A stretch of 64,000 nt of DNA from an uncultured Verrucomicrobiae bacterium (GTDB lineage: Bacteria; Verrucomicrobiota; Verrucomicrobiia; Palsa-1439): positions 455,929 through 519,928 of the forward strand of contig CAVQGJ010000011.1 of NCBI GenBank assembly GCA_963712025.1. The letters are read 5' to 3'. Each line of letters starts with the position of its first letter. Position 1 is the stretch's first letter. Under the pieces are notes generated by a model. It was not told the origin of the DNA, did not search any database, and saw only the letters and a list, made by a program, of their open reading frames with translations. Shown piece after piece: positions 15,260-31,675 of the stretch. Both the position numbers and the translations under genes were made by a program.

Positions 15260-15261
15260 AC

Positions 15262-16636: not shown

Positions 16637-17854
16637 TCACTTTCCAATTCCCGACGTGATGGAGAATACCGCCATCAATATGCTCATGACGATACCGCCG
16701 ACGACAACCGCCATGATAATGATAATCACGGGCTCAAGCAACGTCGTGAATATCTTCAGCATCCGCGAGAGTTCCTGCTCGTAGGCGTCGGCGATATTCT
16801 TGAGCGCGGGCACGACCGCGCCGCTCTCCTCCCCGACCGCCAGCATGTCGATGAGCAACGGCGGGAACACCTTGCCCTTGCTGAGCGGTTGGCTGATGCT
16901 TGTGCCGTCGGTCACCCGGGTGCGCGCCTCGCGAATCTCGTTCGCGATGACGCGGTTGGTCATGGTGTCCTCGACAATCTGCAGGGCCGTGAGCACGGGC
17001 ACGCCGTTTTCCAACAGCGTCGCCAGGGTCCGCGCGAACTGGGCCAGCGCGTTGGCCATCAGGATGTTCCCGAAGACCGGCAGCCGCAACTTCAGGACGT
17101 CGAGCGCCAACTTCCCCTCCGGGGTTCGGGCGCGAATCCGATAGACCGTCACCCCCGCGACAGCCAGAAGAACCCCGATCCACCAATAGGCCACGAACTT
17201 GTCGCTGATCCAGATGAGGCACCGGGTCGGCAATGGCATGGTGGTGCCCATTTCCTTGAACATGGCCGAGAACCGCGGCACCATGACCAGCATGAAGAAA
17301 ATAATCGTGCAGATGCCGACCGCGACAATAATCAACGGGTAAATCAGGGCGCCAACAACTTTCTCGCGCACCTCGGCCATCTGCTCCTGATGTTTTCCCA
17401 GACGCAGGAGCACGTCGTCCAAAGAGCCACTGGCTTCACCCGCCTTGATCAGGTTCACAAAGAAGCGGGAGAAAACCTTGGGGTGCTTCGACAGCGAATC
17501 CGACAGGCTCTCGCCCTGGACGATGCCATTCCGCAATTCACTCAGGATGGCCCCCAGCGCCCTCTTTTGCGACCGTCGTTCCAGGGTGCCAAGCGCCTGG
17601 CTCAGCGACATACCGGATTTCAGGAGACTGGACAATTGCTGGGTGAACATGAGCACATCACGGGACTTGACCCGGTTGCCCAAGCTGCTGGCCTTGTCCT
17701 GGGCCAGTTGATCCGCCTCGGCCGAATCCACCGCCAGCGGGAAGAACCCCAGTTTGCTCAGCTCCGCCAATGCCGCGCGACGGTCGCCCGCAGCGAGAGA
17801 CCCGTTCACGACTTCGCCAGCGCGCGTCTTGGCTTTGTATTGGAACGTCGGCAT
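16637..17854 (-). CDS. gspF: type II secretion system inner-membrane platform protein GspF
   Basis: 405 aa; duplicated GspF/PilC domain architecture (..LSSLLKSGMSLSQAL.. and ..LATLLENGVPVLTAL..). Confidence 0.9.
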   Translation of the reverse strand: MPTFQYKAKTRAGEVVNGSLAAGDRRAALAELSKLGFFPLAVDSAEADQLAQDKASSLGNRVKSRDVLMFTQQLSSLLKSGMSLSQALGTLERRSQKRALGAILSELRNGIVQGESLSDSLSKHPKVFSRFFVNLIKAGEASGSLDDVLLRLGKHQEQMAEVREKVVGALIYPLIIVAVGICTIIFFMLVMVPRFSAMFKEMGTTMPLPTRCLIWISDKFVAYWWIGVLLAVAGVTVYRIRARTPEGKLALDVLKLRLPVFGNILMANALAQFARTLATLLENGVPVLTALQIVEDTMTNRVIANEIREARTRVTDGTSISQPLSKGKVFPPLLIDMLAVGEESGAVVPALKNIADAYEQELSRMLKIFTTLLEPVIIIIMAVVVGGIVMSILMAVFSITSGIGK

Positions 17855-17956: not shown

Positions 17957-19684
17957 TCACGTGCCGGTCAGTTCTTCGTCTTCCTGCGTGACCCGCGCGA
18001 TTTCTTCCACGGTCGTCATGCCCTGGCGGACCTTGTCCCACCCGTCATCGCGGAGGGTCTTCATCCCCTGGCTGATCGCCATTTGCTTGATGGCGCTGGA
18101 CGAGGCGCGTTCGATAATCAAGGGCCGCAACGCCTCGGACATCACGAGGATTTCGTAGATGGCCGAGCGCCCCTTGAATCCGGTAAACCGGCACTCTTCG
18201 CAGCCGCGCCCCCGGTAGAACTTCACCTTGCCAATGTCCTGGGCGGGAAACCCGACCTCGTGGAGAAATTCAGGTCCGGGTTTGTACTCCTCCTTGCACG
18301 CCTTGCAATTCGTCCGGATCAGGCGCTGGGCAATCAACGCCTCGACCGACGAACTCACCAGAAACGGCTCGATGCCCATGTCGATCAACCGCGTGATCGC
18401 GCCGGGCGCGTCGTTCGTGTGGAGCGTCGAGAACACCAGATGGCCCGTCAGCGCCGCGCGAATGGCGATCTCCGCCGTTTCCAGGTCGCGCACTTCACCA
18501 ACCATGATCACGTCGGGGTCCTGCCGCAAAATGTGGCGCAGGCCGCTGGCAAACGTCAGCCCGATTTCCGACTTCACCGAAATCTGGTTGACGCCGGGCA
18601 GTTCGTATTCGACGGGCTCCTCGATGGTGATGATTCGCTGGTCAATCGAGTTGATCGTGCTCAGAAACGCGTACAACGACGTGGATTTGCCCGAACCGGT
18701 TGGCCCCGTGACGAGGATGATCCCGTGCGGCATATCAATCAGTTTGCGGATGATCTTTTCCTCCTCCTTGTTCAGGCCCAAACTCTCGAGCCCGAGAAAG
18801 ATGCTGCTGCGCGTCAGCAACCGCAAACTGACGCTTTCCCCGTAGGCGGTCGGAATGGTCGAGACACGCACGTCGATTTCCGCGCCGCTGCTGCGGACGT
18901 TGATGCGACCGTCCTGCGGGAGGCGGCGTTCGGCGATGTCCATGTTGGACATGACCTTGATGCGTGAGATGATCGCGGCCTGGAACCGTTTCAGGTGCGG
19001 CGGCACGGGCGTCTGGTGCAACACGCCGTCTACGCGATAGCGGATGCGCAGGTCGTTCTCCATCGGTTCCATGTGAATGTCGGTCGCCCGCTCCTTGTAC
19101 GCCTCCCCGATGATCTGGTTCACAAATTTGACGACGCTCGCCTCTTGGTCGCCGCTTTCCAAATCGTCCTTCGTCACTTCGGCGATCTCGTCGATGTCCA
19201 GCACGTTCTTCTGCAACAGCTCGTCCAGTGTCTCCGCGCCAACCCCGTAATAGCGTTTCAGGGCCTTGGCGATGTCGGCCTGGGTGCACAAGGCCAGTTG
19301 GACGCGCGATTTGGTCACGAGCCGGACGGCTTCGAGCATGGTGAGATTGAACGGATCATGGGCGGCCACCAGTAGCGTCCCGTTCTCGGCGCGCATCGGC
19401 ATGACGTTGTGCTGGAACACTACCTTGGTCGGGACCTTCTGGCGCGCGACCGCGTCGATCTCTTTGTCGGTGATCCGCGTGAACGGCAGGTGCAGCGCCT
19501 GGGCCAGAGCTTGGAGCAGCTTCTCTTCGGGCGCGACTCCCGATTTCACCAGCGTAGTGATGAGCGGCTGCGCGGCTGACTGCGGGGCCGACAGCGCCTC
19601 GGAAATCTGCTTTTCCGTGAAAAGTCCCGTCTGCTGAAGCAGTTGCCGCAGATCCACCGGTATTGTGTCGACAGTCGCTACCAT
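17957..19684 (-). CDS. gspE: type II secretion / type IV pilus assembly ATPase GspE
   Basis: Start moved to ATG 19684 (MVATVDTIPVDL..). Walker A VTGPTGSGKSTSLY. Tetracysteine CKACK..CEEC. GspE/PilB N-terminal domain. Confidence 0.9.
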   Translation of the reverse strand: MVATVDTIPVDLRQLLQQTGLFTEKQISEALSAPQSAAQPLITTLVKSGVAPEEKLLQALAQALHLPFTRITDKEIDAVARQKVPTKVVFQHNVMPMRAENGTLLVAAHDPFNLTMLEAVRLVTKSRVQLALCTQADIAKALKRYYGVGAETLDELLQKNVLDIDEIAEVTKDDLESGDQEASVVKFVNQIIGEAYKERATDIHMEPMENDLRIRYRVDGVLHQTPVPPHLKRFQAAIISRIKVMSNMDIAERRLPQDGRINVRSSGAEIDVRVSTIPTAYGESVSLRLLTRSSIFLGLESLGLNKEEEKIIRKLIDMPHGIILVTGPTGSGKSTSLYAFLSTINSIDQRIITIEEPVEYELPGVNQISVKSEIGLTFASGLRHILRQDPDVIMVGEVRDLETAEIAIRAALTGHLVFSTLHTNDAPGAITRLIDMGIEPFLVSSSVEALIAQRLIRTNCKACKEEYKPGPEFLHEVGFPAQDIGKVKFYRGRGCEECRFTGFKGRSAIYEILVMSEALRPLIIERASSSAIKQMAISQGMKTLRDDGWDKVRQGMTTVEEIARVTQEDEELTGT

Positions 19685-19743
19685 CACATTTTCACCTCTA
19701 CGATATGAGACACCACATTCCTTGTCAATGGCACAAGAAATCG

Positions 19744-19763
19744 GGTAGTGTCCTAATTTGAAA
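19744..19763 (+). repeat. left terminal inverted repeat GGTAGTGTCCTAATTTGAAA (flanked by TSD AGAAATCG at 19736-19743)
   Basis: Exact reverse complement of 32020-32039. The tip matches the IS1-family end consensus GGnnnTG. Confidence 0.85.
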
Positions 19764-20165
19764 ACTTCGCATAGCAGGGTCAATCAGGCCCATGGCAAGA
19801 AAAGGCCAACATTCCCCCATCCTGACCCCAGCCTTATTGACTGGAAGCGAATCGACAAGGGCATTCTGCATGAGGTGCGCGTCCTGCGAGCCAACGGCAT
19901 CGAGACGACGGAATCCTGTCAGGGCGGACACGGGCATCCGTTCCCGGAGCCTACGGTGCGATTCTGCGGTGGAGAAGCCGCCGGATGGTTTGCGCTTGGC
20001 ATCGCGATGCAAGAGCGCCTAGCGGTGAACGAGCTTCGGAGAATCTGGCGCATTATTGATGGCGTGCCCACTGGCCCGGAATGGGAAATAACATTCGATC
20101 ATCCCGGTGTCGGGCCATGCCCGGTGGATAGAGGAGACGGGAAAGCCACTTGGCGCTGGCGCTAA
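19758..20165 (+). CDS. hypothetical protein (up to 135 aa; start uncertain)
   Basis: ORF with a TTG start inside the left TIR and no early ATG. ..GIETTESCQGGHGHPFPEPTVRFCGGEAAGWF.. No recognised domain. Confidence 0.4.
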   Translation: MKTSHSRVNQAHGKKRPTFPHPDPSLIDWKRIDKGILHEVRVLRANGIETTESCQGGHGHPFPEPTVRFCGGEAAGWFALGIAMQERLAVNELRRIWRIIDGVPTGPEWEITFDHPGVGPCPVDRGDGKATWRWR

Positions 20166-20169
20166 AGCC

Positions 20170-20394
20170 CTACTTGCCTTTTCGGTCTAGCTCATTGCAA
20201 TCGTCACACAACGGTTTCCCGCCCGTACCCTTCCGTCGATTGTGCGGAGGTATCTCACTGCCCGGTCCGCATTTTGGGTTGTCGTGATGGTGTTTCTCTT
20301 TTACGGAATACCACGTATTTTTCCCGGCGTGCTTGGCGATGGAAAGCCCGCTTCCCAATCCTTTGGAGCGGTTGCCCGCTGGCTTGTTTTTCAT
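20170..20394 (-). CDS. small Cys/His-containing hypothetical protein (74 aa)
   Basis: MKNKPAGN..KHHHDNPKCGPGSEIPPHNRRKGTGGKPLCDDCNELDRKGK. Resembles a widespread family of small GTGGK..C..C proteins. Confidence 0.5.
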   Translation of the reverse strand: MKNKPAGNRSKGLGSGLSIAKHAGKNTWYSVKEKHHHDNPKCGPGSEIPPHNRRKGTGGKPLCDDCNELDRKGK

Positions 20395-20457
20395 GCGGGC
20401 TGTTATCGCGCCATGCGGACGCCTAGACAACCAGAAAAGCGAACACCCCGGCATCCA

Positions 20458-20721
20458 TCATTCCCTCTGGATGTTGACATTCGCTCCGCCATCGGAAGTG
20501 ACCACACAAATCAGCCTTCCGGTCTCCTCGCTCCTGTTGTTCTCCCATTGGACCGGACGTAAGCCTCTCCGGTCGATTTCCCATCCGAAGCCCGACTCGT
20601 GGTTTCCGTGCTCGCTGCGCACAATCCACGCGCCGCATTCGTCTTTACGCGCTTTGGCCGGGTCATGGCTTGCTACCGTATCGCCATTTCTCCACGCTTG
20701 CTCTATCAAATCCTCATCCAC
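20458..20721 (-). CDS. HNH-endonuclease-like small protein, catalytic core apparently deleted
   Basis: ..RKDECGAWIVRSEHGNHESGFGWEIDRRGLRPVQWENNRSEETGRLICVVTS. The family normally reads GWEIDH-about 15 aa-NLRPLQWENN. Confidence 0.55.
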   Translation of the reverse strand: MDEDLIEQAWRNGDTVASHDPAKARKDECGAWIVRSEHGNHESGFGWEIDRRGLRPVQWENNRSEETGRLICVVTSDGGANVNIQRE

Positions 20722-20904
20722 AGTAGCCTCCCGTGTGACACATGATTACTGGGTAGTCGAAACGCGAAGGCCCGGCCATCCAACCTGACCGGAAGCCAAG
20801 TCCGGGGGAAGGACAGCCGAGCCGTCGCAGTCAGAGCCTACGAGCCTTCCGAATTGCTGTCAACACCATCACGCAACTCAGCGGCTTGGGCTGGTAGCCG
20901 GATT

Positions 20905-21132
20905 TCATCGGCGGTTCTTCTTTCGCTTTGGAGCGGAAAAATCCCGAGCAGGCATCCACACCGCATCCATTTTCGGCTTCTTGTCCGGTGCCGACATACC
21001 GATGAGTCTCAGCGACCGGAAGGCAGCCTCCTTGTCGCGGAATGCGGCCAGCGGGCGATACTCGCCATCGTACAGGGCCGAAATCACGTACACTTTCTTC
21101 GTCGGTACGATTGGAATTAGTTGGTTGCTCAT
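20905..21132 (-). CDS. small hypothetical protein (75 aa)
   Basis: ATG 21132 lies 4 nt after the stop of the upstream TPR gene. MSNQLIPIVPTKKVYVISALYDGEYRPLAAFRDKEAAFRSL.. Confidence 0.5.
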   Translation of the reverse strand: MSNQLIPIVPTKKVYVISALYDGEYRPLAAFRDKEAAFRSLRLIGMSAPDKKPKMDAVWMPARDFSAPKRKKNRR

Positions 21133-21135
21133 GCT

Positions 21136-21741
21136 TCATCCTCCTTGGCCTTGGCGATGGTCTGTCGTCAATCCATTGCCAACACTGTCTCGCAACTCAG
21201 CGGCTTGTTGGCATGTCTCTGCTGATTCTCGGATTCGGCCAAGCCGAAACAGAATCTTGCCACGGTGGTTTATCACACGGGCCGCGTCCTTGCGCATTTC
21301 GGGATATGGATTTGCGCTCATCAATTCACGGTAGAGCCGGATGGATTCGTCCACCGTTTTCAATGCCTCATCGAACCGATTCAGTTGAAACAGCGCATCG
21401 GCTTTGGTCGATAACGCATAAGCGATGTCGATTCGGTACTGAGTAGCGCCCGCCTCGACCGCCTTCCGGTAATTGTTAATGGCGGCATCGTTGCTTGCCA
21501 CTGATTCTTCGTACTGCATAAGGCGAAACAGAACTTCGCCAGCATAGTATTGAGTCTGAGCCAAATCGGTTACGGATTCGACCCCACCATCTCGTGCGAG
21601 CCGCTCGAAAATTTCCGACGACTCATGGAATCGCTCAAGCGCCTCTTTGTAAGAATCCCCATCAATACACTTCAAGCCGTCACGGGCCGCCGCAACAGCG
21701 CCATCACGGATAGCTGCGTGGTCTTTGATAGTTTCAGCCAT
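21136..21741 (-). CDS. TPR-like helical repeat protein (201 aa), cassette A
   Basis: Paralog of 22786-23292 (shared ..VASNDAAI..AGxxxYxIxIAYALSTxADALxxLNRFxExL..). C-terminus CQQAAELRD. Confidence 0.6.
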   Translation of the reverse strand: MAETIKDHAAIRDGAVAAARDGLKCIDGDSYKEALERFHESSEIFERLARDGGVESVTDLAQTQYYAGEVLFRLMQYEESVASNDAAINNYRKAVEAGATQYRIDIAYALSTKADALFQLNRFDEALKTVDESIRLYRELMSANPYPEMRKDAARVINHRGKILFRLGRIRESAETCQQAAELRDSVGNGLTTDHRQGQGG

Positions 21742-21760
21742 GTTACATACCTCCTAGCAT

Positions 21761-22264
21761 CTAGCGGACAAAGGTGTGTCCTCCCCATCCGCGCCGGTGG
21801 CGTCGCCCAAATTCCGCCTCGGCCAGTTTGTCGCACCAATCTGTGCGGCCTGATTCAACCAGTGTGCGGATAGCTCGCGCTGCGTCGGAGTACGACTGCT
21901 CGGCGCTAACGCCACACGCCGCATTGGAGCGAGCGTCTATCAAGAATGCGATGGCCGCAGATTCGTCTGTGTCACGAGCGTTGTCCCATGTCTCGCGCCA
22001 TCCACCGTTTTTGACGCGCTCCCGACACGATGGACAAGCCCACACCCCTTCAATGCGATTAGCCTCGCGGATGTCGAGTCGGCCCGGGCAGAATTCACAG
22101 AATCGGAACGGTTGCTGTTCCAGCGCCTTCGCGCCAGCCGTGCCTAGACAGCACAAGCAAATGAATTCACTCCGACCAGCAACGGTCGGGTGTGTCTGCA
22201 TGTGATTCCATTGGCCCCGATAGAGACCGACCTTGCCGCAGAGTTGGCAGACCTGCGAACCCAT
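21761..22264 (-). CDS. Cys-rich (multi zinc-ribbon-like) hypothetical protein (167 aa), first gene of cassette A
   Basis: CQLCG..CLCC..CEFCPG..CPSC motifs. Directly preceded by structured leader copy A. Confidence 0.55.
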   Translation of the reverse strand: MGSQVCQLCGKVGLYRGQWNHMQTHPTVAGRSEFICLCCLGTAGAKALEQQPFRFCEFCPGRLDIREANRIEGVWACPSCRERVKNGGWRETWDNARDTDESAAIAFLIDARSNAACGVSAEQSYSDAARAIRTLVESGRTDWCDKLAEAEFGRRHRRGWGGHTFVR

Positions 22265-22284
22265 CTTGTCCCGTTTCCCTTCCT

Positions 22285-22466
22285 GCGATCAGGACAAACA
22301 GAAACCGCGCTCGGTCAGGAACGCGGTTCAATCTGCGTGGAGTTACTGTTCGGACGGTCATTCGCCGCCCGCACATCGACCGGAGCAACTTACTCTGGTC
22401 AAGCCACCGTGGGACTCCCGCCCCGGTTGGCAGATTCGGCTTTCACCGAATCGTTCCTGATGCTGG
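22285..22466 (-). ncRNA. candidate structured 5' leader RNA, copy A (ends in a terminator-like hairpin 22303-22328 plus a U-rich tract)
   Basis: About 85-90% identical to 24046-24257. Several hand-foldable hairpins. Promoter immediately upstream, RBS and ATG about 20 nt downstream. Confidence 0.55.
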
Positions 22467-22470
22467 CGCG

Positions 22471-22498
22471 ATTATACACCACGCCGTCGCTGAGTCAA
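22471..22498 (-). promoter_or_regulatory. sigma70-like promoter for leader A
   Basis: Minus strand TTGACT (22498-22493), 16-nt spacer, TATAAT (22476-22471). The conserved leader begins 5 nt downstream. Confidence 0.55.
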
Positions 22499-22505
22499 GC
22501 TCGGA

Positions 22506-22760
22506 TTAGAGCATCTCGACTTGATTGCTTCTTACACCATCCGCTTTTGGACTGGCAAACGGGTCTATGCGCGGCGGACAATCGAGGCGTTCAGTCTTGT
22601 TCAACAAGCCCTCGATGGTGAGAATCTGAACACGCGGATAGTCCTTGTCACTCCACAGTTTTGATGTGTAGCAGTTTGCCTCCACTGCTTCCAATTTCAT
22701 CTTCGACGTTGGCGGGTCGAGTGTGATGAGCACGCCCGCCTTGAACCCCTGATTGCCCAT
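22506..22760 (-). pseudogene. C-terminal fragment of a DNA methyltransferase
   Basis: ..KAGVLITLDPPTSKMKLEAVEANCYTSKLW..YPRVQILTIEGLLNKTERLDCPP. This is the typical C-terminus of N6/N4 methylases, and no upstream catalytic part is present. Confidence 0.55.
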
Positions 22761-23292
22761 GTCTGCCTCGCACGACTGACGAAACCTGGCGGATGGATTC
22801 CTCCACGACTGTCAACGATTCCTTGAATCGATTCAAGCGATACAAGGCATCGGCATTGGTGGACAGCGCGTAAGCAATGTGGATTTCGTACTCGCTCTGG
22901 CCTGCGTTGACCAATTCCTGCCACAACCGGATGGCCGCGTCGTTGCTGGCGACACATCCCTCGTACTTGGCGTTGTGGAAGAAGCCTTCGCCCGTGTCAT
23001 AGTGCGCCTCCGCCAAATCGCAGGCGAATTCGGCATGGCCGCGATTGACCAGCCGCTTGAATACTTTCAATCCCCTTCGGAAACACGCGAGCGCCTCTTT
23101 GTGGTGACGGTCATGGAGCAACTTCAACCCTTGCGTCATCACGTCTGCCGCGTCATTTCGCTCTTGTTCTGACACAATCTTGTCGGCCATCTGGTTAGCG
23201 AACGCCTCGAATTCGGCTTTCGTGGCACCGCCGCTAATGAATCCAAGCGGCACCATGTCCGGTGTTTGGATGAATGGGGGGTTAGGATTCAT
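22648..23292 (-). CDS. TPR-like protein, cassette B second gene, truncated and fused into the methylase remnant
   Basis: ATG 23292 (MNPNPPFIQ..). Paralogy to 21136-21741 stops after ..TVVEESIRQ (about 22786). The remaining ORF reads out of frame across the methylase fragment. Confidence 0.5.
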   Translation of the reverse strand: MNPNPPFIQTPDMVPLGFISGGATKAEFEAFANQMADKIVSEQERNDAADVMTQGLKLLHDRHHKEALACFRRGLKVFKRLVNRGHAEFACDLAEAHYDTGEGFFHNAKYEGCVASNDAAIRLWQELVNAGQSEYEIHIAYALSTNADALYRLNRFKESLTVVEESIRQVSSVVRGRHGQSGVQGGRAHHTRPANVEDEIGSSGGKLLHIKTVE

Positions 23293-24025
23293 GGTCGGTT
23301 GCGCCTCCACTCTTGACCTGAGCGTGCAATTCGGCGGCTCGCTGATAGCACGCGCTGGCCTCCGCTGCCCGATGCAGCCCCTTCAACGCATGGCCTTCGC
23401 ATCGCAGCGACCAGATGAGGACATTCTTGAATCGCTTTTCGTCGGTGGGGCCGCTTATCCCGTCCAGAGCTTCAACCGCGCCGTGAGCGCAAGTCACGGC
23501 TTCGTCAAATTGTCCACGGTTGCAAAAGATGATGCTTTTTTCCGCGAGTACCCATGCCGTCTCCTGTAGCGCGTCGGCCCGCAACGTGCCGCCAAGCAAC
23601 CGCTGGTAGACGGCCAGAGCCTCACCGAGTCTAGTCAGTGCATCGTCGAATTTTCCCGCCTTTCGGAGCGACTGGCCAATGGTAAAGAGCGTGATGCCGA
23701 ATTTCAACACCATGGGTTCACTCCATCGGTCAGACCAGTCGAGATACGCCGCGCCCACTTTGGCGAAAACGCCCAGTCCTTCGTCAAATTGGCGTGAGTG
23801 AACAAAATGCAGCGCATAGTCAAGCAGCGCGTCTACTCGTTCCGGCGGCAAATACGTAAGACCCCGATGCGCGGCAGCGCCGCCAATGATTTGGATGCCG
23901 CCGCCAATCATCTGGTCGGTGATGTCCTGAATCTCCACCTTGCTGCCGTCGGTCGTCGCCGGGTCATACTCGCCAAGGTCGGATAATCGCTTCGGTGCTT
24001 CTGACTGATTGCTGGTCCCACACAT
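23282..24025 (-). CDS. TPR-like helical repeat protein (247 aa), first gene of cassette B
   Basis: Helical repeats. The C-terminus CYQRAAELH resembles that of the other cassette proteins. Preceded by leader copy B. Confidence 0.6.
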   Translation of the reverse strand: MCGTSNQSEAPKRLSDLGEYDPATTDGSKVEIQDITDQMIGGGIQIIGGAAAHRGLTYLPPERVDALLDYALHFVHSRQFDEGLGVFAKVGAAYLDWSDRWSEPMVLKFGITLFTIGQSLRKAGKFDDALTRLGEALAVYQRLLGGTLRADALQETAWVLAEKSIIFCNRGQFDEAVTCAHGAVEALDGISGPTDEKRFKNVLIWSLRCEGHALKGLHRAAEASACYQRAAELHAQVKSGGATDHES

Positions 24026-24045
24026 GATGCACCCTGTCCTTTCTC

Positions 24046-24257
24046 GCGATCAGGACAAACAAAAACCGCGTTCGTCAGGAACGCGGTTCAAACTGCGGAG
24101 TATTTTGTTCGGGGATTCCAGTCCAGAGGGCTCTAATTGCCCAAGGAGGGAACCACTCCCGCACATCGACCGGAGCTACTCGCTCCGACCAAGCCACCGT
24201 GCGAACTCCCTCGCCGGTTGGCAGATTCGGCTTTCACCGAATCGTTCCTGATGCTGG
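24046..24257 (-). ncRNA. candidate structured 5' leader RNA, copy B (terminator-like hairpin 24064-24088 plus UUUUUGUUUGU)
   Basis: Same blocks as copy A with a 30-nt longer central hairpin. Compensatory substitutions occur in two stems. Confidence 0.55.
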
Positions 24258-24261
24258 ACAG

Positions 24262-24290
24262 AGAATATCAGGTAACAGATTCGATTGCAA
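24262..24290 (-). promoter_or_regulatory. sigma70-like promoter for leader B
   Basis: Minus strand TTGCAA (24290-24285), 17-nt spacer, TATTCT (24267-24262). Confidence 0.45.
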
Positions 24291-24296
24291 GCGAAT

Positions 24297-26691
24297 TTAG
24301 GCGGGCTGCTTTTCAGATGCTTCCCATCGCGCGCTGGACGCCTTGACCGATTCGTAGTTGGCATCAAGGCTCGGCTGTAAAAGCACAAGCGCAGCAATGC
24401 GACGGGCCATCGCCGTAACTTCTTGGACCTCCTCAACCCGCAACGAGCGGCCAAGCAGCGCATCTTCTCGGTAGCTAAGCCATTTCTTGATGACCTGATA
24501 GCCGCCGATGGTGTAATCCCATATCTGCCAACGCGCCGCGCAATCGCACCGGGAAGTAATAGGCGTCGTCGCGCAACGCATGGTCGTCGCCTAGCAACCG
24601 TGTAAAACAAAATGGCACGCCTTCAGGATTTGCCTTTCCTGTGCATCGTGTAAGCAAGAAACTGTTGCCGGGCCAACATTGCGCCCAAAGCGTAGGACGC
24701 GGTTCGTTCCAAAGCGGTCTGACCCCACTGTAATAGCAGTAGCGGGTATCGAAGGGGCGAACGAAGTATGCTCGCAAATGTGATGGCACGAACTTTTCGA
24801 CGGCAAGAATCTTATTTCTAGTCTTCCTAGCGTCAAATCGTGCCGCGTTCTCGACTAGACCACCTCCTGCTGCCGCAAGCGTTTCCCAAGTCACGTTAGG
24901 GTCACAATATCTTCTCATCCGCTGTTCAAGCGTCGCTTGGTCAGTGTCAATTAGTGTCCCGCCGCGTTTCTCCATCAGACCATTGGGCGGAGCCTGCGCG
25001 CATAATTCAGAAATCTTAGGCCACTTTGCATAGTGGTCGGCAACATTGCCCGGGACGGAACGAGAACCGATTGCTTTTCTTTGGTTCCGCTATGGCGAAT
25101 TTCTCCTCGAATTGCCAAGCACGACCAAAATATCGCCCTCATGTTTCACCTGATTGGCAGCGTCGTACTCCTGTTTCAATTCCGGCATGTTCATTTCCAG
25201 TTGTTGCAGCCGAGCCTTGCCCTCATTAGATGGCGGTTGCCAGCCGGTGAGTGAGTTCGTCAGATAAACACGGACGCGATCAGTCTCGGTGAGCGGGGCT
25301 TTCAGGTTTTGCAACAATAAGCCGATTTGAAGGTGAGAAACCACAAATGGTGCCGGTAAATCTCGAATCCAAACAGACGTTCAAGCGTTGCCTTTTTAAG
25401 CTCGTCTGGAACGGTGGCATCGCCACTATTCTCTTGGAGGGTCGCGTGAATCCTCCTGATGACTTCCAGCAAATAACCCGCCGTTCCACAACAGGGGTCA
25501 AGCACGTGGACGTGCTTGTTGGCGAATCCGTCCTCCAAATCAAGTTCTTCACGCAATATCTTGTCCACTCGCTCAACTTGGTAACGGATAATTTCTCGCG
25601 GGGTCAGCCAGACGCCAAGTTGCTTTCGTAATTCCGGGTCGAAGGCCTTTAGGAATGGCTCATAGAAGTATTGCACGGCCTGATGCTCGTCAAACCGAGC
25701 AAAGAAAGTGGTGCGCTCCACTCGGTTAAGTAGGTTTTCCGTCCACCCTAGGACTTCCGTAAGACCAAGAGGTTTCAATTTGGACGGCGAGGAAACCTGT
25801 TGAAACAACGCTTGGATAACGGGCAGCCTGAGATAATCGACGCACTCCCGCCAGCGAAAGTCATTTTTCCGGGTTGGATTTTCCTTGTGCCATAGAACCC
25901 ACCCGGAGAACACGCCATAGAAAAGCGTTTGCACAAGTGTCGAATGGAAAAAGTGTTGAGCTTCTTCATCCGAGAACTTCATACCCAGTCCTTCTTCCAA
26001 TGCTGTTCGCGTTGAGGCCAATGCTGGCAAATCGGCCTGCTGTTCGACATGGATGCGAGCATCGCGAGCGTAGGACGCGAGAAACCAAGCGACCATTTCT
26101 GGTTCAATTATCGTGGAGGAATTGAGCATCACCCGCTTCAAGTATTCTGCTATCAATTCCCCATGACGCTCTGCCGTCTTGCGAGCATGGTCAGTAGCTC
26201 TCCAAAAATCATCCTCGTTGGTTGCCAAGGAGTAGGTCTCCAGTTCTACTGGCTTTCCATTCGTGTCACGTCCAACCAAGAGAAAGCTCCAGAAATTTGT
26301 CACCAATACTTGACCGTATTTTCCCAAGTACCGTATGACCTGCTCGCCCTTCGCCACATCCCGCAGAGATTCTCCGGCGGGTTTGGCTTCGATTACTCCG
26401 CGGTCGGGGTCCAACTCAGCTAATGGAGGCACGGCTTGGTTTTGTTTGAGCAAAGATGTCGTGAATAATCCGAAGTCGGGAATTCCTTTGCCGTGGTTCT
26501 TCGGATGGTTGATGGAGGTGATCTTAGGTTTGAGTGTGTCGCCAATTGTATTCAGTAGATCGGAGAGAGCCGGGTATCCTGAAGTTTCGTCCGTACCTGC
26601 TCCACGAATTGACTGCACGCGGTTGAGATAGCGTTCTAGCGCCTCGGTAAACTTCGACGTAGTGGTTTTTTCAGGTTTCATCGTCATCATC
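24297..26691 (-). pseudogene. MmeI-like type IIG restriction-modification enzyme remnant (several frame breaks plus an internal deletion of the NPPY region)
   Basis: N-terminal PD..EAK nuclease-like motif (GIPDFGLF..RGVIEAKP). SAM motif I VLDPCCGTAGYL. ..GFEI|LPAPFVVSHLQIGLLLQNL.. ILVVLGN is followed directly by FEEKFAIAEPKKSNRFSFRP. Type-ISP-like C-terminal domain ..WDYTIGGYQVIKKWLSYRE. The pieces lie in ORFs 25302..26879, 25090..25344, 24475..24975 and 24297..24581. Confidence 0.65.
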
Positions 26692-26961
26692 ATCCCACGG
26701 GTCCGGGTAATACCCGGTGTCGTCAGCAATCGCCTTGCTGACACGTTCCGGTATCGAGCCATCCTTGCAAAACTGTCCGGCTTCCTCTGCGGTGACTGGA
26801 ATGGCATCGTTCCATTCACCGACTGTGCCCTTCCAGGGTTTCCACTCGCCGTTGTCGAAAGTGAGTATGCCCCCGCCATCCCTCATCGGCTCTGGGTCGA
26901 TTAACTGGCGAGCGCGGGTTATTGAATATCTGCCATATAGGTCATCGCCCATGCGAGTCAC
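26671..26961 (-). CDS. small hypothetical protein with acidic tail (96 aa)
   Basis: Its start overlaps the upstream gene's stop by 4 nt, and its own stop overlaps the start of the RM remnant. Ends ..YYPDPWDDDDDET. Confidence 0.5.
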   Translation of the reverse strand: MTRMGDDLYGRYSITRARQLIDPEPMRDGGGILTFDNGEWKPWKGTVGEWNDAIPVTAEEAGQFCKDGSIPERVSKAIADDTGYYPDPWDDDDDET

Positions 26962-28067
26962 GAAGCCTGCTTGTCCAACTGTTTCACCCGGTTCTTTAGC
27001 TCGACTTCACGCGCGGCCCATTCCTTGCCGAGCGCCGCGTGCTCCAAGCAGTCAAATAATTCTTCGCTGGTCAAACCACCGTTGCCTAGCAACTTGCCCA
27101 CCGCTTCCCGGTCGCGCTCGACAGCCAACTGCATTTGTTCGAGGTCTTTCACGCCCGCGAACGTCTGCTTGCGGATGGATAGCAGGGTGTCCTTCACCCG
27201 TTCCAACAGGTCGAGATTGCGCAGGAATTTCTCGACGACCAGATTCACCGCGTCCAGCCGGACCGCCAACGTCTTGCCATCTTTCTCGGCTTGCGCTCGT
27301 TCAATGACCATGCGACGCGCCAGCAAGTAGGCGATACGCAGTGGCTCGAAATTGTACCGGGCGCGATCAGTGATGGCCACGAAGCCGCGTTCCTCGAAAT
27401 ACCGTAGTGACCCGACCTCACTTTTGATGGCATCCTTCGCCGTCGCGTCGTCAAGTACGATGATTTGCTCGTCCGACTTTCGGTTGGCCTTCATTTCCAA
27501 CAATTGCGATAACACCGTGTCACCATCCGCGACCACGGCCCGCTTCGCAATCGTACCGAGAGCCATTCCGACTACCAATTTACTTTCGACAGCGATGATT
27601 CGCGGCGACGGCAAGCGAGGGTCGTTGACGGTCACGAGAATATCGCCGGTCTTATTCAGTTCATCCTCAGCCGTCGCGCCGGTAAGCGCCACGGTGTCAG
27701 CTAGTTTTTCGGCTCGAATGATGTCTTTGAGCACGTCGCTGTATTCGACTTCCGCCTCCGCGCCTTTGCGGGTCGTACCGGCCAGAATCTCGCGGTTCTT
27801 ATAGAGCAGTTTGAGGCTTTCGAGTTGCACACCAAGCTCGTCCTCAGTGCGGGCAAGGAACGCGCTTACCCGGTCCTCCATGAGCGCCAGTGACCCGATG
27901 CCGACGGCCTTCCGTACTGCATCGGCGCGGTCGTCGGCCTTGGTGTTGGACAGGTATTCAAACACCAACGGATGCGTGAGCGTGAGGTGGTCAACGACGA
28001 CGGACTTGCTCTCCGCGTCCATCGTGACCTTTTCCTTGTCCGGCACTTTCGCTGGTTGCTTGCTCAT
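26958..28067 (-). CDS. coiled-coil protein with PD-(D/E)xK-like nuclease motif (DUF2130/RmuC-like pattern)
   Basis: 369 aa. ..TRKGAEAEVEYSDVLKDII..TGDILVTVNDPRLPSPRIIAVESKLV.. (D..ExK spacing). Long helical N- and C-terminal regions. Confidence 0.55.
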   Translation of the reverse strand: MSKQPAKVPDKEKVTMDAESKSVVVDHLTLTHPLVFEYLSNTKADDRADAVRKAVGIGSLALMEDRVSAFLARTEDELGVQLESLKLLYKNREILAGTTRKGAEAEVEYSDVLKDIIRAEKLADTVALTGATAEDELNKTGDILVTVNDPRLPSPRIIAVESKLVVGMALGTIAKRAVVADGDTVLSQLLEMKANRKSDEQIIVLDDATAKDAIKSEVGSLRYFEERGFVAITDRARYNFEPLRIAYLLARRMVIERAQAEKDGKTLAVRLDAVNLVVEKFLRNLDLLERVKDTLLSIRKQTFAGVKDLEQMQLAVERDREAVGKLLGNGGLTSEELFDCLEHAALGKEWAAREVELKNRVKQLDKQAS

Positions 28068-28381
28068 TTGCGCCCTTCTTTCTCTTTGATCTCACTGACG
28101 ATGGCCGCTTGTACCGCCTTTTGCGGCGTGTCTATCGGCGGCACTCCCAACACGGCCACGTACTTCGTCTTTTCGTCCTGTGCGCCGTCCAGATGGCTCC
28201 ACGCATAACATCGCTTGGCCTTCGGATGGCCGACCAAATCGAACACTTCCACGATACCGCGCCATGCTGTCTTGCCCTGAAAGACTTCATGCACCGGCAC
28301 GGATTCGATGTGCTTGGAATCGCAGCCGTGCAGCTTGCCGATCACGGCCCGCAGTTCTTCGACGTATTCAGGATTCGCCAC
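28064..28381 (-). CDS. small conserved hypothetical protein (105 aa)
   Basis: MANPEYVEELRAVIGKLHGCDSKHIESVPVHEVFQGKTAWRGIVEVFDLVGHPKAKRCYAWSH.. Its start overlaps the transposase stop by 14 nt. Confidence 0.55.
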   Translation of the reverse strand: MANPEYVEELRAVIGKLHGCDSKHIESVPVHEVFQGKTAWRGIVEVFDLVGHPKAKRCYAWSHLDGAQDEKTKYVAVLGVPPIDTPQKAVQAAIVSEIKEKEGRK

Positions 28382-29198
28382 AGCGTTCTATCAGTTCCGC
28401 AACCGTCCACTGGCTGCTTTCCACGCCTGCCGCTTGTGCGGGAGTCATGCGAATAGCCCCATGCGATTTGCAGAAATTATAGTACGCAAAACTCAGCGCG
28501 ACCGCAGCCTTAAAATTCGGCAGCTTCTTGCTAAAGGCGTTGGTCAACCGGGTGAGGCGTCGGCAGTGCATCCGTAGAGTGTGATTCTGTTTCTCGACAT
28601 GCGAGGTTGTGATTCGGGCAACCAGTGGGTTGCCTTGGATAATTTTCCTTTCGACTTCCACGACCTCTGCCGGGCTGTACCGGCTCGCCGCTTCCTTCGT
28701 GAGATTCGTGACGGAGTAGGTTTTTACAATTTGCCCATAATCGACTTCGCTGCCGAACCCGTAATCGACAGCTTCGGGATAAGTACCAAGAGCGTCTGAC
28801 GAAAGCTGGACGCGATTCGCCAGCCGTCCAGCCAAATCATCCATGAATCGCCGTGCAAAATACCGGTCGCGCTGGCCCACGACAAAGGCAGGAATCAATT
28901 TAGTATCGCAGTCCAAGGCAATCCATGTCCAAACATCGCCATACACGCGCGCCCGTGCCGCGTTCTTTCGCTTGGCTCCAATGAAGCCCCAAATTTCATC
29001 AACTTCGACGTTGCGGCATGGCAGGTTGACCATTTTCGCATCCATGATGGCCTCACAGGCAGTGCCAACGCGGAGGCCTAGCCTCATAATCGTATCCCTG
29101 TGGATGCCCGTCATCCGCTCAATGGAGCGGATGGAATTGCCTTCGGCCAAAGCGCCGATCACCACCGCCTGTTTGTCTGGTTTCAAGTTGTTTGCCAT
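28368..29198 (-). CDS. IS1-family transposase (single-ORF type)
   Basis: 276 aa. N-terminal HTH (EGNSIRSIERMTGIHRDTI). DDE region VEVDEIWGFIGAKRKN..VWTWIALD..LSSDALGTY..TSHVEKQNHTLRMHCRRLTRLTNAFSKK..YYNFCKSH. Confidence 0.8.
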   Translation of the reverse strand: MANNLKPDKQAVVIGALAEGNSIRSIERMTGIHRDTIMRLGLRVGTACEAIMDAKMVNLPCRNVEVDEIWGFIGAKRKNAARARVYGDVWTWIALDCDTKLIPAFVVGQRDRYFARRFMDDLAGRLANRVQLSSDALGTYPEAVDYGFGSEVDYGQIVKTYSVTNLTKEAASRYSPAEVVEVERKIIQGNPLVARITTSHVEKQNHTLRMHCRRLTRLTNAFSKKLPNFKAAVALSFAYYNFCKSHGAIRMTPAQAAGVESSQWTVAELIERCGES

Positions 29199-29226
29199 AT
29201 CGCACCTCTATTCTTTATGGGATTTA

Positions 29227-29272
29227 GTGTACTACAGAAAGTAATGAAGTCAACAACTATTTTGTAGTACAC
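29227..29272. promoter_or_regulatory. operator-like palindrome between the divergent transposase and RHH genes
   Basis: GTGTACTACA (29227-29236) and TGTAGTACAC (29263-29272), a perfect 10-bp inverted repeat with a 26-nt spacer. The core GTAGT resembles the element TIR tip. Confidence 0.45.
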
Positions 29273-29290
29273 AAACTTTTCTTTTGTGCT

Positions 29291-29473
29291 ATGCTTCCTT
29301 CCATGAGCAAACGCATGGGACGGCCCAAGCTGCCCAAGGACGAAGCCCGCAGCATCGTCTTCCAGATTCGTATTTCGCCAAAGGAGCAACGGCGCTTCAA
29401 GGCAGCGGCCCGCAAGGCTGGCAAAGAACCGACCGAATGGGCCAGAAACGCCTTGCTTTCTGTGGCCCTTTAG
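29291..29473 (+). CDS. small ribbon-helix-helix-like DNA-binding protein
   Basis: MLPSMSKRMGRPKLPKDEARSIVFQIRISPKEQRRFKAAARKAGKEPTEWARNALLSVAL. The beta-strand then two-helix pattern is typical of the CopG/Arc type. Confidence 0.5.
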   Translation: MLPSMSKRMGRPKLPKDEARSIVFQIRISPKEQRRFKAAARKAGKEPTEWARNALLSVAL

Positions 29474-29484
29474 CGTATAGAGAT

Positions 29485-29578
29485 TGGCGGAAGCTGAGGG
29501 AGTCGAACCCCCATCGCTGGTCAGAGCGAGACCATTGGGGTGTAAAGTCCAGTTGCGCACCGGCGCGGGTCAGCTTCC
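29485..29578 (-). tRNA. selC-like (tRNA-Sec / allo-tRNA-like) gene with a non-canonical anticodon arm; possibly a pseudo-tRNA
   Basis: GGAAGCUGACCCGCGCCGGUGCGCAACUGGACUUUACACCCCAAUGGUCUCGCUCUGACCAGCGAUGGGGGUUCGACUCCCUCAGCUUCCGCCA. It has an 8-9 bp acceptor stem, a T arm with UUCGACU, a D stem with the 4-nt loop CGGU, a long variable hairpin and an encoded CCA. Confidence 0.5.
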
Positions 29579-29913
29579 AAAAGTGATAGCCTACGCGGGC
29601 CGTGCACAAGATCAGTGGAAGCTGAGTGTGCGCGGCCCGCCCTTTTGTATCCTCGCGCTTGTCCCGGACCGGCCATGCCAGGGGGCGCTCGCGACTAATA
29701 CTTGGTGCATCATGGCGATTTCCTTTCACACGCGCACCATATCGAATCGTGCCTGACCACGTAAGAGACCGGATGGAAAGCGGCCCGTGGCGTTCACGGG
29801 ACACGCTGCCGAGCGGGGGAAGTCTCAGGGGGGACAAGAAGGGGGTGCCTTGGTGTCCCCAAGGGGCTACTGAGGGGGTGCCTTGATGACCCTGCGGGAA
29901 AGCGGACGCGAGA

Positions 29914-30501
29914 CTACTGCGGCGGCCCGCGTTGGAGAAACCTCAGTCCAATCCGATGGCAAAGTTTCTTCGTGCGTCCAATATCACCAACAATGCTCTT
30001 TTGAAGTTTGGAACACAGCCACTCGTGGACTTGTGGAATGCTCCGCAGAGCATTGACCTCGGTTTGGTGTTGCAGGAGTATCTGGTAGATCACCAGAGCC
30101 GTTGTCGCCGCTTTTGGAAGGCGCTCAGGATGCCGGTCATATTTCTGGAAGCATTTAATGCCGTGAAGGAATCCCCGGATGAAGTCCTCGCTTTCTTCCA
30201 GAGTCGAATTCGTGAGCGTGAGCCGTACCGTCGTACCGATAATCACCAGCGTTGACTGGCATTTATCCACCACCAGCTTCGCCTGTTTTGGCGATAGCTT
30301 TTTCATTCCGAGACTGCGACGGTCACGAATGCGGGCGAATTGCGCGAACTGGTATCCCTGCATGGCCCCTTGCCGGAACTTGGTTGATGGTTTTGGGCCG
30401 AGTGGAACGTACATCCGAAAGATGAGATTCGTGACGTTGCCCACCCAAAGCGGCTCCTTGGGGTCCGGCCAAGTGGCGTTCGTTTCGCGTTCCGGTGTCA
30501 A
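29914..30501 (-). CDS. hypothetical protein (up to 195 aa)
   Basis: ORF only. A possible internal start is MKKLSPKQAKL. No recognised domain. Confidence 0.4.
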   Translation of the reverse strand: MTPERETNATWPDPKEPLWVGNVTNLIFRMYVPLGPKPSTKFRQGAMQGYQFAQFARIRDRRSLGMKKLSPKQAKLVVDKCQSTLVIIGTTVRLTLTNSTLEESEDFIRGFLHGIKCFQKYDRHPERLPKAATTALVIYQILLQHQTEVNALRSIPQVHEWLCSKLQKSIVGDIGRTKKLCHRIGLRFLQRGPPQ

Positions 30502-30615
30502 CGCGAGTCACGTTACTACTTCGGTCGCAGGAAAGGCAATTGCACTCTTGCGGTCAGAGTTTGCGCGTGACTACATCACCGGGAGTTGATATAAGCACGA
30601 CGTGGCAGGAATTCC

Positions 30616-31062
30616 ATGAAAGCTGAAATCTTTACCCTTTGCGATGCAGCAACAGCAGATGCGACAACGGGCAAGTTAAACATTCTCGGGAGTTTCGACC
30701 GATTTTGGTTTCCTCAGATGCCCGCAATGACACCGTTCTTTGCCTTGGCAGCCAAAATCCGATTCACGCAGAGCGAGGAAGGAAACAAGAAAATTCGGAT
30801 TCTGTTTATGGATACTGACGGAAAACCGGTAATACCTAAGCTTGAGGTCGTGGCACCAGTTCGTTTTGCACCAAACGATACGACTGCCACTTTGCAGTTT
30901 GCGATGATACTTCCACCGCTAAAACTAGCGAGTTTTGGGGACTACTCGATTGAGTTATCTGTAGACCAGACGGAATTGGCGACGTGCCAGTTGTCTGTGC
31001 GACAATCTCCCCCGTCGCCCCTGTCACCGCAACAATTCCAACCGCCGCCGCCGCCTTCATAA
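30616..31062 (+). CDS. hypothetical protein (148 aa) with Pro-rich tail
   Basis: MKAEIFTLCDAATADATTGKLNILGSFDRFWFP.. ATG preceded by GGAA. Lower GC than the core genome. Confidence 0.5.
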   Translation: MKAEIFTLCDAATADATTGKLNILGSFDRFWFPQMPAMTPFFALAAKIRFTQSEEGNKKIRILFMDTDGKPVIPKLEVVAPVRFAPNDTTATLQFAMILPPLKLASFGDYSIELSVDQTELATCQLSVRQSPPSPLSPQQFQPPPPPS

Positions 31063-31324
31063 GAAAACCCCTCGTGCTATACCAGCCAACGAATCTCCGT
31101 GGATACGGTATAGCCGCGCATGTCTGATTGTCAACCAGTTTGATGCAGACTGGCATTTGAGAAATCTCGTGTACCACCAGAATGGTCGCGCCAATGACCA
31201 GAAGAAGGAGCGGGACCCAAAGCTGTCCGCTTCTGTCAGCGAGCATCATGACCGGAGCCGTTACAGCCGCCCAAGCCAGCGAAAAACGCCAGACGAACCG
31301 ATTATTGCTTTTGAGAATACTCAT
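30836..31324 (-). CDS. putative small membrane protein; 3' end uncertain (the ORF runs antisense into 30616..31062)
   Basis: N-terminal about 85 aa have two hydrophobic helices (FSLAWAAVTAPVMML, LWVPLLLLVIGATILVV). The remainder is probably not translated as such. Confidence 0.3.
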   Translation of the reverse strand: MSILKSNNRFVWRFSLAWAAVTAPVMMLADRSGQLWVPLLLLVIGATILVVHEISQMPVCIKLVDNQTCAAIPYPRRFVGWYSTRGFLMKAAAAVGIVAVTGATGEIVAQTTGTSPIPSGLQITQSSSPQNSLVLAVEVSSQTAKWQSYRLVQNELVPRPQA

Positions 31325-31574
31325 TTTTCAAGTCCCTATATACCTTCAGCACTATTCTAGCCACAATTGCAGTAAATACAAGCGCGTCCGTGATGGCGGA
31401 AATGCTCACCAAATACTCGATTAGCAATATGACGTGTGACGGTTCATCATACCGCATCGCCAGTTTCTCAATGAGAGCAAGACCAACTGCGAACACAAGC
31501 AGGCACAGGCAGAGAATGAATAGTTCAAACGAGTCCCTGATGGTCTGCTTTGTCCCTGCCGAGAGAATCTCCAC
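31302..31574 (-). CDS. small membrane protein (90 aa), AT-rich
   Basis: Hydrophobic helices (LFILCLCLLVFAVGLALI; SISAITDALVFTAIVARIVL). Overlaps the next ORF's start by 23 nt. Confidence 0.4.
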   Translation of the reverse strand: MEILSAGTKQTIRDSFELFILCLCLLVFAVGLALIEKLAMRYDEPSHVILLIEYLVSISAITDALVFTAIVARIVLKVYRDLKNEYSQKQ

Positions 31575-31675
31575 ACGGTTTGTTGTACCGCAAGGTCATC
31601 ATTTACGGAAGCCAAATCAGACGCGGCCCGTTTCCCGTTGACGCGATTCACGCACTGGTGCGATGATGCCGCACC

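Follow-up and report, generated by a model that had tools for sequence, protein, structure and literature searches.

Why should two leaders of the same build precede unrelated first genes, less than two kilobases apart, in the genome of an uncultured Verrucomicrobiae bacterium? The window analysed here, a stretch of 64,000 nucleotides (nt), carries both on the minus strand and in the same orientation: copy B at 24026-24290, read directly from the sequence, and copy A at about 22265-22500, located by a core-word match and alignment. A first-pass annotation of the stretch had recognised a promoter, a conserved fold and a terminator in each, without naming the RNA. We propose, with a probability of roughly 0.87, that copies B and A are SAM-I/IV riboswitches which sense S-adenosylmethionine (SAM), are joined to an intrinsic terminator and act as a genetic OFF switch.

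Two copies of a SAM-I/IV aptamer

A 21-nt core word is found at exactly two sites in the window, copies A and B, and was matched in 0 of 100 shuffles. We constructed a covariance model, R1, from 11 aligned sequences and a hand-drawn structure. Scanned over the window with filters off, it gives 140.5 bits for copy A and 110.2 bits for copy B, the runner-up reaching 12 bits; in a further run, which recovered 100 instances in 98 sources, copy B scored 121 bits (E = 1e-26). The z-scores of the minimum free energy (MFE) are -5.2 for copy B and -4.7 for copy A. The absence of the core word from shuffles, the z-scores and the presence of only two filter-free model sites thus exclude chance.

The similarity of A and B extends from 3 nt before the first helix, P1 (GCAUC), to GAUCGC directly past the terminator, while promoters and first genes do not align. 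This supports the view of the first-pass annotation that the RNA, and not its flanks, is the conserved module. The leader elements of copy B, i.e., promoter hexamers, terminator and the ATG at 24025, lie on the minus strand where they had been placed. Putative promoter B (24262-24290) was read from the sequence as a -35 hexamer TTGCAA (24290-24285), a 17-nt spacer and a -10 hexamer TATTCT (24267-24262). The hexamers are there as described, but they match only 8 of 12 consensus positions and were not called by the promoter scan. Reading the minus strand from 24500, one meets the stop codon of the preceding open reading frame (ORF), then TTGCAA and, past the -10 hexamer, a structured stretch rich in GC. 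Transcription of copy B is predicted to start 1-3 nt before P1. Promoter A (22471-22498; TTGACT, 16 nt, TATAAT) matches the consensus at 11 of 12 positions.

Each copy ends in a hairpin of 11 pairs followed by a U tract. The terminator scan placed intrinsic terminator B at 24052-24089, with the stem-loop at 24063-24089 and the U tract UUUUUGUUUGU, and its hairpin is present in the MFE fold. The stem-loop of terminator A lies at 22302-22329 (terminator scan), and its U tract, UCUGUUUGU, is weaker than that of B, as had been claimed. The terminator stems, which had been called identical, are not: the 3' arm reads GAGCGCGGUU in A and GAACGCGGUU in B, a difference of one base that exchanges U.G for U-A.

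What both leaders carry is no new fold but a further representative of an established riboswitch class. At gathering thresholds, Rfam yields no match anywhere in the window. Scored against its SAM-I/IV model (RF01725, clan CL00012, 99 model positions, gathering cutoff 41.1 bits), however, the score is 38.5 bits for copy A (E = 5e-4) and 33.1 bits for copy B (E = 0.008), in either case across all 99 positions, and SAM-I/IV is the best Rfam match within the SAM clan. That both scores stay below the cutoff is due to the long P4 and P5 insertions, which cost 3-8 bits; the cutoff is an operational criterion rather than a structural trait of the family. A new RNA class was considered and is ruled out by the end-to-end RF01725 match and the shared architecture of the crystallised RNA 4L81. 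A cobalamin riboswitch, a first impression raised by "GGUGAAAGCC", was dropped as well, Rfam giving no such match.

The aptamer of copy B (24095-24258) was delimited by RF01725 and R1, and its helices were read from sequence and alignment. In transcript order it comprises the 5' strand of P1 (GCAUC with GAUGU, 24250-24254 paired with 24163-24167), the junction J1/2 (AGGA, 24246-24249), P2 (GAUUCGG with CCGAAUC, 24223-24245), P3 (24193-24222) with its loop L3 (GGGAGU, 24205-24210), P4 (24168-24190), P5, a long variable hairpin (24110-24161), an A-rich linker (24102-24109) and the 3' strand of a pseudoknot, PK-2 (ACUCC, 24097-24101). The aptamer of copy A (22337-22467, delimited by the same two models) has the same SAM-I/IV layout with a short P5. 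P2 is a simple hairpin of 8 pairs and one bulged base, with no internal loop. In both copies, P4 is a 9-bp hairpin that follows P3 within the junction and precedes the 3' strand of P1; P5 stands 3' of P1. PK-2 joins the P3 loop to the 3' tail, in both copies through GGAGU of L3 and ACUCC, which follows P5 and the A-rich linker. Of these elements, the first-pass annotation had drawn three, namely an inner hairpin (distal P3 with L3), a 9-bp hairpin (P4) and a central variable hairpin (P5); P1, P2, PK-2 and the SAM-I/IV identity were absent from it.

The combination of helices separates the RNA from the other members of the clan. SAM-I (RF00162) has the same ligand pocket positions, the four-way junction with P4 and OFF switching by a terminator, but its P2 contains a kink-turn, its P2 loop forms PK-1 with J3/4, and it lacks P5 and PK-2; the P2 of our RNA is plain, and its P5 and PK-2 are present and covary. 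SAM-IV (RF00634) has the core in common with it, likewise a P5 hairpin downstream of P1 and a PK-2 that joins the P3 loop to the 3' tail, but is described as lacking P4 and as having PK-1 and a split P2a/P2b (PMC6890682), whereas nearly all of the aligned homologs of the window RNA carry a P4, which covaries at all 9 pairs. On the basis of P2, PK-1, P4 and P5, SAM-I as well as SAM-IV can thus be excluded. For SAM-I/IV, P4, P5 and PK-2 are described while PK-1 and the split P2 are missing (PMC6890682), and its P2 is simple (PMC2864571, PMC6890682). RF01725 and 4L81, whose sequence is printed in PMC5393176, share with the window copies P1, the simple P2, P3, P4 in the junction, the P1 3' strand, P5, the A-rich linker and PK-2, as well as the core letters AUC..GA, GCCAACC, GGUGGC and GAUG. 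Compared to the model, both P4, at 23-25 nt, and P5, which in copy B reaches 52 nt, are longer in the window RNA. The crystal structure 4L81 was reportedly determined by Trausch et al. in 2014.

The ligand pocket is equally well preserved. In SAM-I, residues 6-8, 11-12, 44-47, 57-59 and 87 lie within 5 A of SAM (PMC6890682). The matching letters in both copies are AUC, GA, CAAC, UGG and A, so that all pocket positions are kept save one. The exception, position 59, belongs to a G-C pair that is flipped here and likewise in the Rfam consensus. We infer from this match that copies A and B would themselves bind SAM.

It could be argued that the scaffold has been retuned to another ligand, e.g., S-adenosylhomocysteine, a SAM derivative or a signalling nucleotide. 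Such a specificity variant would explain the non-methionine cargo, which in the window consists of tetratricopeptide repeat (TPR) and Cys-rich proteins and in 58 of 99 related loci among the matches listed of a small uncharacterised protein. It would also fit the scores under the cutoff and the J1/2, which reads AGGA where the Rfam consensus has AAGA. We regard it as very improbable, however. The crystal RNA 4L81, which binds SAM, carries ACGA in J1/2 and thus likewise departs from the consensus, with C, at the variable position (PMC5393176); AGGA was therefore discarded as a sign of altered specificity, and the adjacent G-to-A change (A13-U) has a compensating change in the base opposite. None of the positions that correspond to SAM contacts has been lost, and the lineages concerned, down to single metagenome-assembled genomes (MAGs), also have aptamers with this J1/2 in front of metH or metK.

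Relatives of the SAM-I/IV copies were collected in one scan of 185,579 species-representative genomes with the pattern CATCAGGAR-N(14-40)-YGCCAACC-N(8-38)-GGTGGCT, which gave at least 118 loci (named L001-style, e.g., L034). The full P1-to-P1 arrangement is present in at least 97 loci among the matches listed. These belong mostly to Verrucomicrobiota (Spartobacteria/Chthoniobacterales, Verrucomicrobiia, Opitutales, Akkermansia), Lentisphaerae and Planctomycetota, with a few in other phyla. The RF01725 gathering score is passed by 8 of 18 loci tested, among them L091, the closest listed relative of copy A, with 41.6 bits, and seven others with 44.6-68.8 bits. The window copies are thus part of a continuous family that straddles the cutoff.

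The fold itself is carried by covariation. In the alignment of the 100 R1 instances, 97.5% of the cells are paired, compared to 74.0% in column shuffles (0 of 500 as high) and 35-49% when the partner strand is slid. Substitutions that break the proposed stems at random are thus not what the homologs exhibit, and every helix drawn for A and B is supported. Changes on both sides occur at 29 of 38 pairs, and every pair of P2 (8), P4 (9) and P5 (7) covaries; in P4, 94.8% of the cells are paired, with gaps in the outer pairs of 11-17 of 98 sequences. Since the scan pattern fixed certain letters, invariant pairs at these sites are uninformative either way. PK-2 was tested apart, because a pseudoknot cannot enter a covariance model: at least 5 Watson-Crick complementary bases with the own tail are present in 88% of distinct sequences, compared to 23% with the tail of another sequence, and 26 different pairing words occur across the family.

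Taken by themselves, the two window copies offer thin evidence for the compensatory changes that had first been put forward. All their differences are pair-compatible, but only one is a double compensatory change, the G-C to C-G exchange in the inner hairpin (distal P3) under the same GGGAGU loop. The four changes in P4 are one-sided, and all four keep pairing, not three as had been counted; one of them repairs an A.C mismatch of copy A. The P5 of copy B is about 30 nt longer, as described. A comparison of copy B with its ortholog at L034 yields more, namely four double compensatory and three one-sided changes with no pair broken.

Two further copies outside the pattern were found by the covariance model, at L091:1-133 (minus strand) and L059:2759-2888 (minus strand). 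They differ at pattern-fixed letters, with ACGA in J1/2, ACC..GGU for GCC..GGC (a compensated pair) and GCCUACC. With the additional copy at L091:1-133, L091 carries two cassettes about 4.7 kb apart and thereby resembles the window. A scan of viral contigs with the core pattern returned four matches, all of them due to chance and without P2 or P3 pairing.

Two copies lying 1.8 kb apart in a mobile-looking island could also suggest a repeat of the type of miniature inverted-repeat transposable elements (MITEs), or else an attenuator of a generic kind whose ligand is a protein or tRNA rather than a metabolite. We consider either of these highly improbable. A MITE would be expected to scatter in either orientation, as the first-pass annotation had pointed out; the 64 kb of the window contain just two copies, which are co-oriented and each stand 5' of a gene, and at all loci with an identified downstream gene the element lies upstream of and co-oriented with it. 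Neither terminal inverted repeats nor target-site duplications were noted, though no dedicated search for them was made. The bounds of the A-B similarity, 3 nt before P1 and just past the terminator, the end-to-end match to a curated riboswitch model and the relatives in front of metH and metK argue in the same direction.

Proposed coupling of the aptamer to the terminator

The expression platform of the SAM-I/IV copies can be read from two complementary strands. In copy B, the segment UCAGGAACG (24243-24251) runs from the final two bases of the P1 5' strand through J1/2 into P2. Its perfect 9-nt complement is CGUUCCUGA (24075-24083), a proposed anti-terminator strand within the 5' arm and loop of the terminator. 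When transcripts are cut before the 3' arm of the terminator, the UCAGGAACG/CGUUCCUGA helix is part of the MFE structure in both copies. The energies of these truncated transcripts are -83.7 kcal/mol for the MFE structure versus -74.0 kcal/mol with P1 forced in copy B, and -69.8 versus -58.6 kcal/mol in copy A, a gap of about 10 kcal/mol. The arrangement is widespread in the family: a downstream complement of at least 7 nt to the 5' segment occurs in 71 of 96 distinct leaders among the matches listed, compared to 5% of shuffles, and in those leaders it usually lies 15-20 nt before the T run.

From this arrangement, SAM-dependent termination is the likely mechanism, and the direction of the switch as well as the termination kinetics are predicted as follows. 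At high SAM, the ligand in the junction pocket would lock P1, and PK-2 (GGAGU of L3 with ACUCC) would pack against P5. UCAGGAACG would then be held in P1, J1/2 and P2, the anti-terminator would be blocked, the terminator hairpin could form, and RNA polymerase would halt at the U tract. At low SAM, P1, which has 5 bp including one G.U, would be weak; UCAGGAACG would capture the emerging CGUUCCUGA in the 5' arm of the terminator, termination would be prevented, and transcription would proceed into the TPR genes.

A second word that can oppose P1, UCCUGAUCGC, lies past the U tract at 24046-24055 and is complementary to GCAUCAGGA with one bulge. Both window copies carry it, and in the MFE structure of the full-length leader its partner is the 5' strand of P1. 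A second complement past the terminator is found in 25 of 96 listed leaders. In many relatives, a pairing of the second word with ...GCAYCAUG at the start codon is possible too; copy B retains it in weak form (UCCUGAUCGC with GCAUCA just before AUG), whereas copy A does not. The second word may thus add translational control in read-through transcripts.

Controlled genes and their genomic surroundings

The genes behind the two riboswitch copies, all on the minus strand, were taken from the ORF list. In operon B, the first gene (23282-24025) codes for a 247-aa TPR protein that starts MCGTSNQ (Pfam TPR_12, 1.3e-10); library searches matched it to TPR families only, and its identity to the gene that comes first behind the riboswitch is 38% in L034 and 31% in L091. 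The second gene (22648-23310; ORF list, Pfam) codes for a 220-aa TPR protein. Over residues 2-173 it is 73% identical to its counterpart in L034, likewise second in the operon; beyond residue 173 the two diverge, and the 3' end of the window gene has thus been replaced. Operon A begins with a 167-aa Cys-rich protein with several CxxC motifs (21761-22264). Pfam, NCBIfam and PADLOC contain no match to it and PHROGs one weak match (phrog_8315, E = 0.011); it is 37% identical to the N-terminal half of a 303-aa Cys-rich/TPR protein in a riboswitch-led operon of L076. The second gene of operon A (21136-21741) codes for a 201-aa TPR protein (Pfam TPR), a paralog of the 220-aa protein with 48% identity over 124 aa. 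The earlier statement that the downstream genes are not conserved thus holds for the first genes, which are unrelated, but not for the second. Small ORFs shared with L091 follow the 201-aa gene. A 75-aa ORF, a 130-aa protein of L091 and a 286-aa protein of L076, each searched against a subset of the libraries, gave only a weak match to phrog_15709 (E = 0.016, L091).

Comparable cassettes exist elsewhere. A riboswitch in front of TPR genes is also present in L034, L091 and L121. L076 has the Cys-rich protein again, while the short Cys-rich ORF behind the riboswitch of L122 is a different one. At the latter locus (L122:1066-6606, plus strand), the riboswitch and the 95-aa Cys-rich gene are followed by a run of four genes (467, 194, 903 and 282 aa), and the product of the third is an SMC-like ATPase. 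Their sizes suggested Wadjet (JetABCD), a candidate that PADLOC did not confirm and for which only weak P-loop matches were obtained.

The same aptamer precedes metH in at least 9 and metK in at least 3 of the loci among the matches listed. MAGs with a TPR cassette are among those that also carry a metH aptamer (L093 with L034, and L087 with L030). In 58 of the 99 listed loci, the first gene belongs to a family of 65-95-aa proteins with the motif NPxHHLWNNNGTWWxHYTxHxPDxTKxRVRxSLxTxDxxxARxxRD; an example is the riboswitch at L049:3550-3679, with the ORF 120 nt downstream. No gene of this kind exists in the window. The family comprises at least 324 clusters at 90% identity, which carry no functional name ("hypothetical protein" if named) and no Pfam domain. 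Pfam, NCBIfam and PHROGs gave no match to the protein, and matches to PDB sequences are at chance level (E >= 0.8); presumably it resembles the arm-type DNA-binding domain of lambda integrase. One MAG, JBGTBW, has four copies (L027, L036, L038, L088), each with its own riboswitch. The genes after the small protein code, among others, for AAA_5/bpMoxR ATPases, metallophosphoesterases, an ADP-ribosylglycohydrolase and many proteins without assignment. A relationship between the AAA_5 ATPase of L034 and the 493-aa AAA_5/bpMoxR protein of the small-protein cassettes was considered and found unconvincing, with only 28% identity in the P-loop region.

Upstream of copy B lies a Type IIG restriction enzyme-methyltransferase gene (24297-26879, minus strand; PADLOC REase_MTase_IIG, 1.6e-35, plus fragments; Pfam N6_Mtase and Type_ISP_C), whose stop codon stands 7 nt before the -35 hexamer. 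It is split over at least four frames (25302-26879, 25090-25344, 24475-24975 and 24297-24581) and is either a pseudogene or affected by frameshift errors of assembly or sequencing. Restriction genes also lie upstream of the riboswitch in three relatives. L034 has an intact Type IIG gene (L034:3-1604, plus strand; 2.6e-166) 72 nt from the riboswitch, L076 a Type III restriction enzyme gene (L076:6051-8000, minus strand; 2.4e-55) at 77 nt, and L091 a Type IIG gene with a PbeA-like fragment (L091:6929-7999, minus strand) at about 2 kb. At all four loci the restriction gene is on the same strand as the riboswitch, and in three of them (window, L034, L076) it directly adjoins. Among seven upstream neighbours of related cassettes, chosen by eye, two match PADLOC families, namely HEC-05 and SoFic.

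The region 20000-32000 of the window is probably a horizontally acquired island. Its GC content is 0.50-0.58, whereas the flanks have about 0.60. An IS1-like transposase is encoded in it at 28371-29198, and it is framed by genes of the type II secretion system/type IV pilus kind, with a GspE-like gene at 17957-19783 and a GspF-like gene at 16637-17854. Within it, the 220-aa TPR gene overlaps an 84-aa ORF in another frame (22506-22760, minus strand) that ends just before promoter A. The region formed by 22648-23310 and 22506-22760 looks like a rearrangement junction where the cassette of copy A joined. A guess that the 84-aa ORF is the C-terminus of a methyltransferase was abandoned, as Pfam, PADLOC and PDB sequence searches returned nothing for it.

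These surroundings raise the question of whether the two leaders are inert relics, i.e., a riboswitch-gene cassette that was duplicated in a decaying mobile island and has lost its regulation. The low-GC island with its transposase, the multiply frameshifted Type IIG gene, the replaced 3' end of the TPR gene and the weak promoter B would all agree with such a history. The RNAs themselves speak against it: both aptamers retain every helix and the pseudoknot, all differences between A and B are pair-compatible, and the long P5 of copy B is shared with L034, another species, where it stands before intact genes. Of the flanks no recognisable similarity is left, while the RNA has been kept, which points to purifying selection on the RNA. 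We therefore hold the loss of regulation to be distinctly improbable.

Two further features of the window are given for completeness. Three plus-strand copies of a 37-nt word at 15195-16586, whose reverse complement by eye encodes a GFTLLEVLLAV-like prepilin N-terminal motif, suggest several pseudopilin genes beside the GspE/GspF genes. At 35822-36900 and 52290-54170, protein-coding sequence is repeated in tandem, with units of about 153 nt and about 122-150 nt (families D1-D3, D5, D7, D9); these are probably parts of large surface proteins with internal repeats and have no relation to the riboswitch.

The assignment of copies A and B to functional SAM-I/IV OFF switches has to be weighed against a number of observations that count against it. 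Both copies score below the gathering cutoff of Rfam. The invariance of the letters at CATCAGGAR, YGCCAACC and GGTGGCT among the relatives exists by construction, as the pattern fixed them. The U tract of copy A is poor. In the full leader, the terminator fold is the thermodynamic optimum with or without P1 forced; any switching must therefore be kinetic, which folding energies alone do not show, and the energy model omits PK-2 and the ligand. As modelled, the energetics would fit the expectation for a kinetically controlled OFF switch. The locus may be decaying, since copy B adjoins frameshifted and truncated genes. Finally, the window copies precede a TPR gene (B) and a Cys-rich gene (A) and not genes of methionine or SAM metabolism, and the controlled genes have no known link to either. 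Neighbouring methionine genes are characteristic of the class, but they are no part of its definition.

A possible role of the riboswitch class outside methionine metabolism

SAM-I/IV was first described mostly from metagenome sequences (PMC2864571). The lineage considered here differs in that it comprises Verrucomicrobiota and other bacteria of the Planctomycetota-Verrucomicrobiota-Chlamydiota (PVC) group from soil and freshwater, and in that the window copies have TPR and Cys-rich proteins as cargo beside restriction-modification genes. One may speculate that in Verrucomicrobiota and the PVC group SAM-I/IV has been recruited beyond methionine metabolism and gates small variable cassettes in defence or mobile islands, in the clade of the window directly behind SAM-dependent restriction-modification genes. 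This idea is drawn solely from gene neighbourhood, and we consider it unlikely. The cassettes contain TPR, Cys-rich and NPxHHLWNNNGTWW proteins, MoxR-type AAA_5 ATPases, metallophosphoesterases and ADP-ribosylglycohydrolases. If the idea were true, a switch that is OFF at high SAM would turn the cassettes on when SAM collapses, be it by starvation or by a SAM lyase with which a phage disarms restriction. In that case the cassette would be a back-up defence and the RNA a guard of the SAM pool; alternatively, it could be a restriction-alleviation module that protects unmethylated host DNA.

Restriction-linked guards are known in other systems. PrrC, which is associated with EcoprrI, is activated by a phage anti-restriction peptide, and phage SAM lyases defeat SAM-dependent restriction and BREX. 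The likeness to the window consists in a module that adjoins a restriction-modification gene and that would, in principle, be turned on when the supply of the cofactor is attacked. The analogy is one of function only. In the window, an RNA would be the sensor, and no toxin or other effector is recognisable in the cargo. SAM lyase is mentioned in PMC11580459 and PMC11842806. Literature searches on SAM lyase, riboswitches and anti-phage systems returned no title or abstract that ties a SAM riboswitch to defence, and those on SAM riboswitches and Verrucomicrobia nothing relevant among the top-ranked results.

For genome annotation, the finding means that SAM-I/IV riboswitches are missed at the gathering threshold of Rfam, whose RF01725 model probably under-calls the PVC lineage. 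The RNA itself is textbook, and it is the regulated gene set that is unusual, as most of the listed copies in this lineage are not located before methionine genes. If the linkage to restriction is not functional, the window merely adds two more copies of a known riboswitch. If it is functional, an RNA sensor would tie the SAM level of the cell to restriction or defence.

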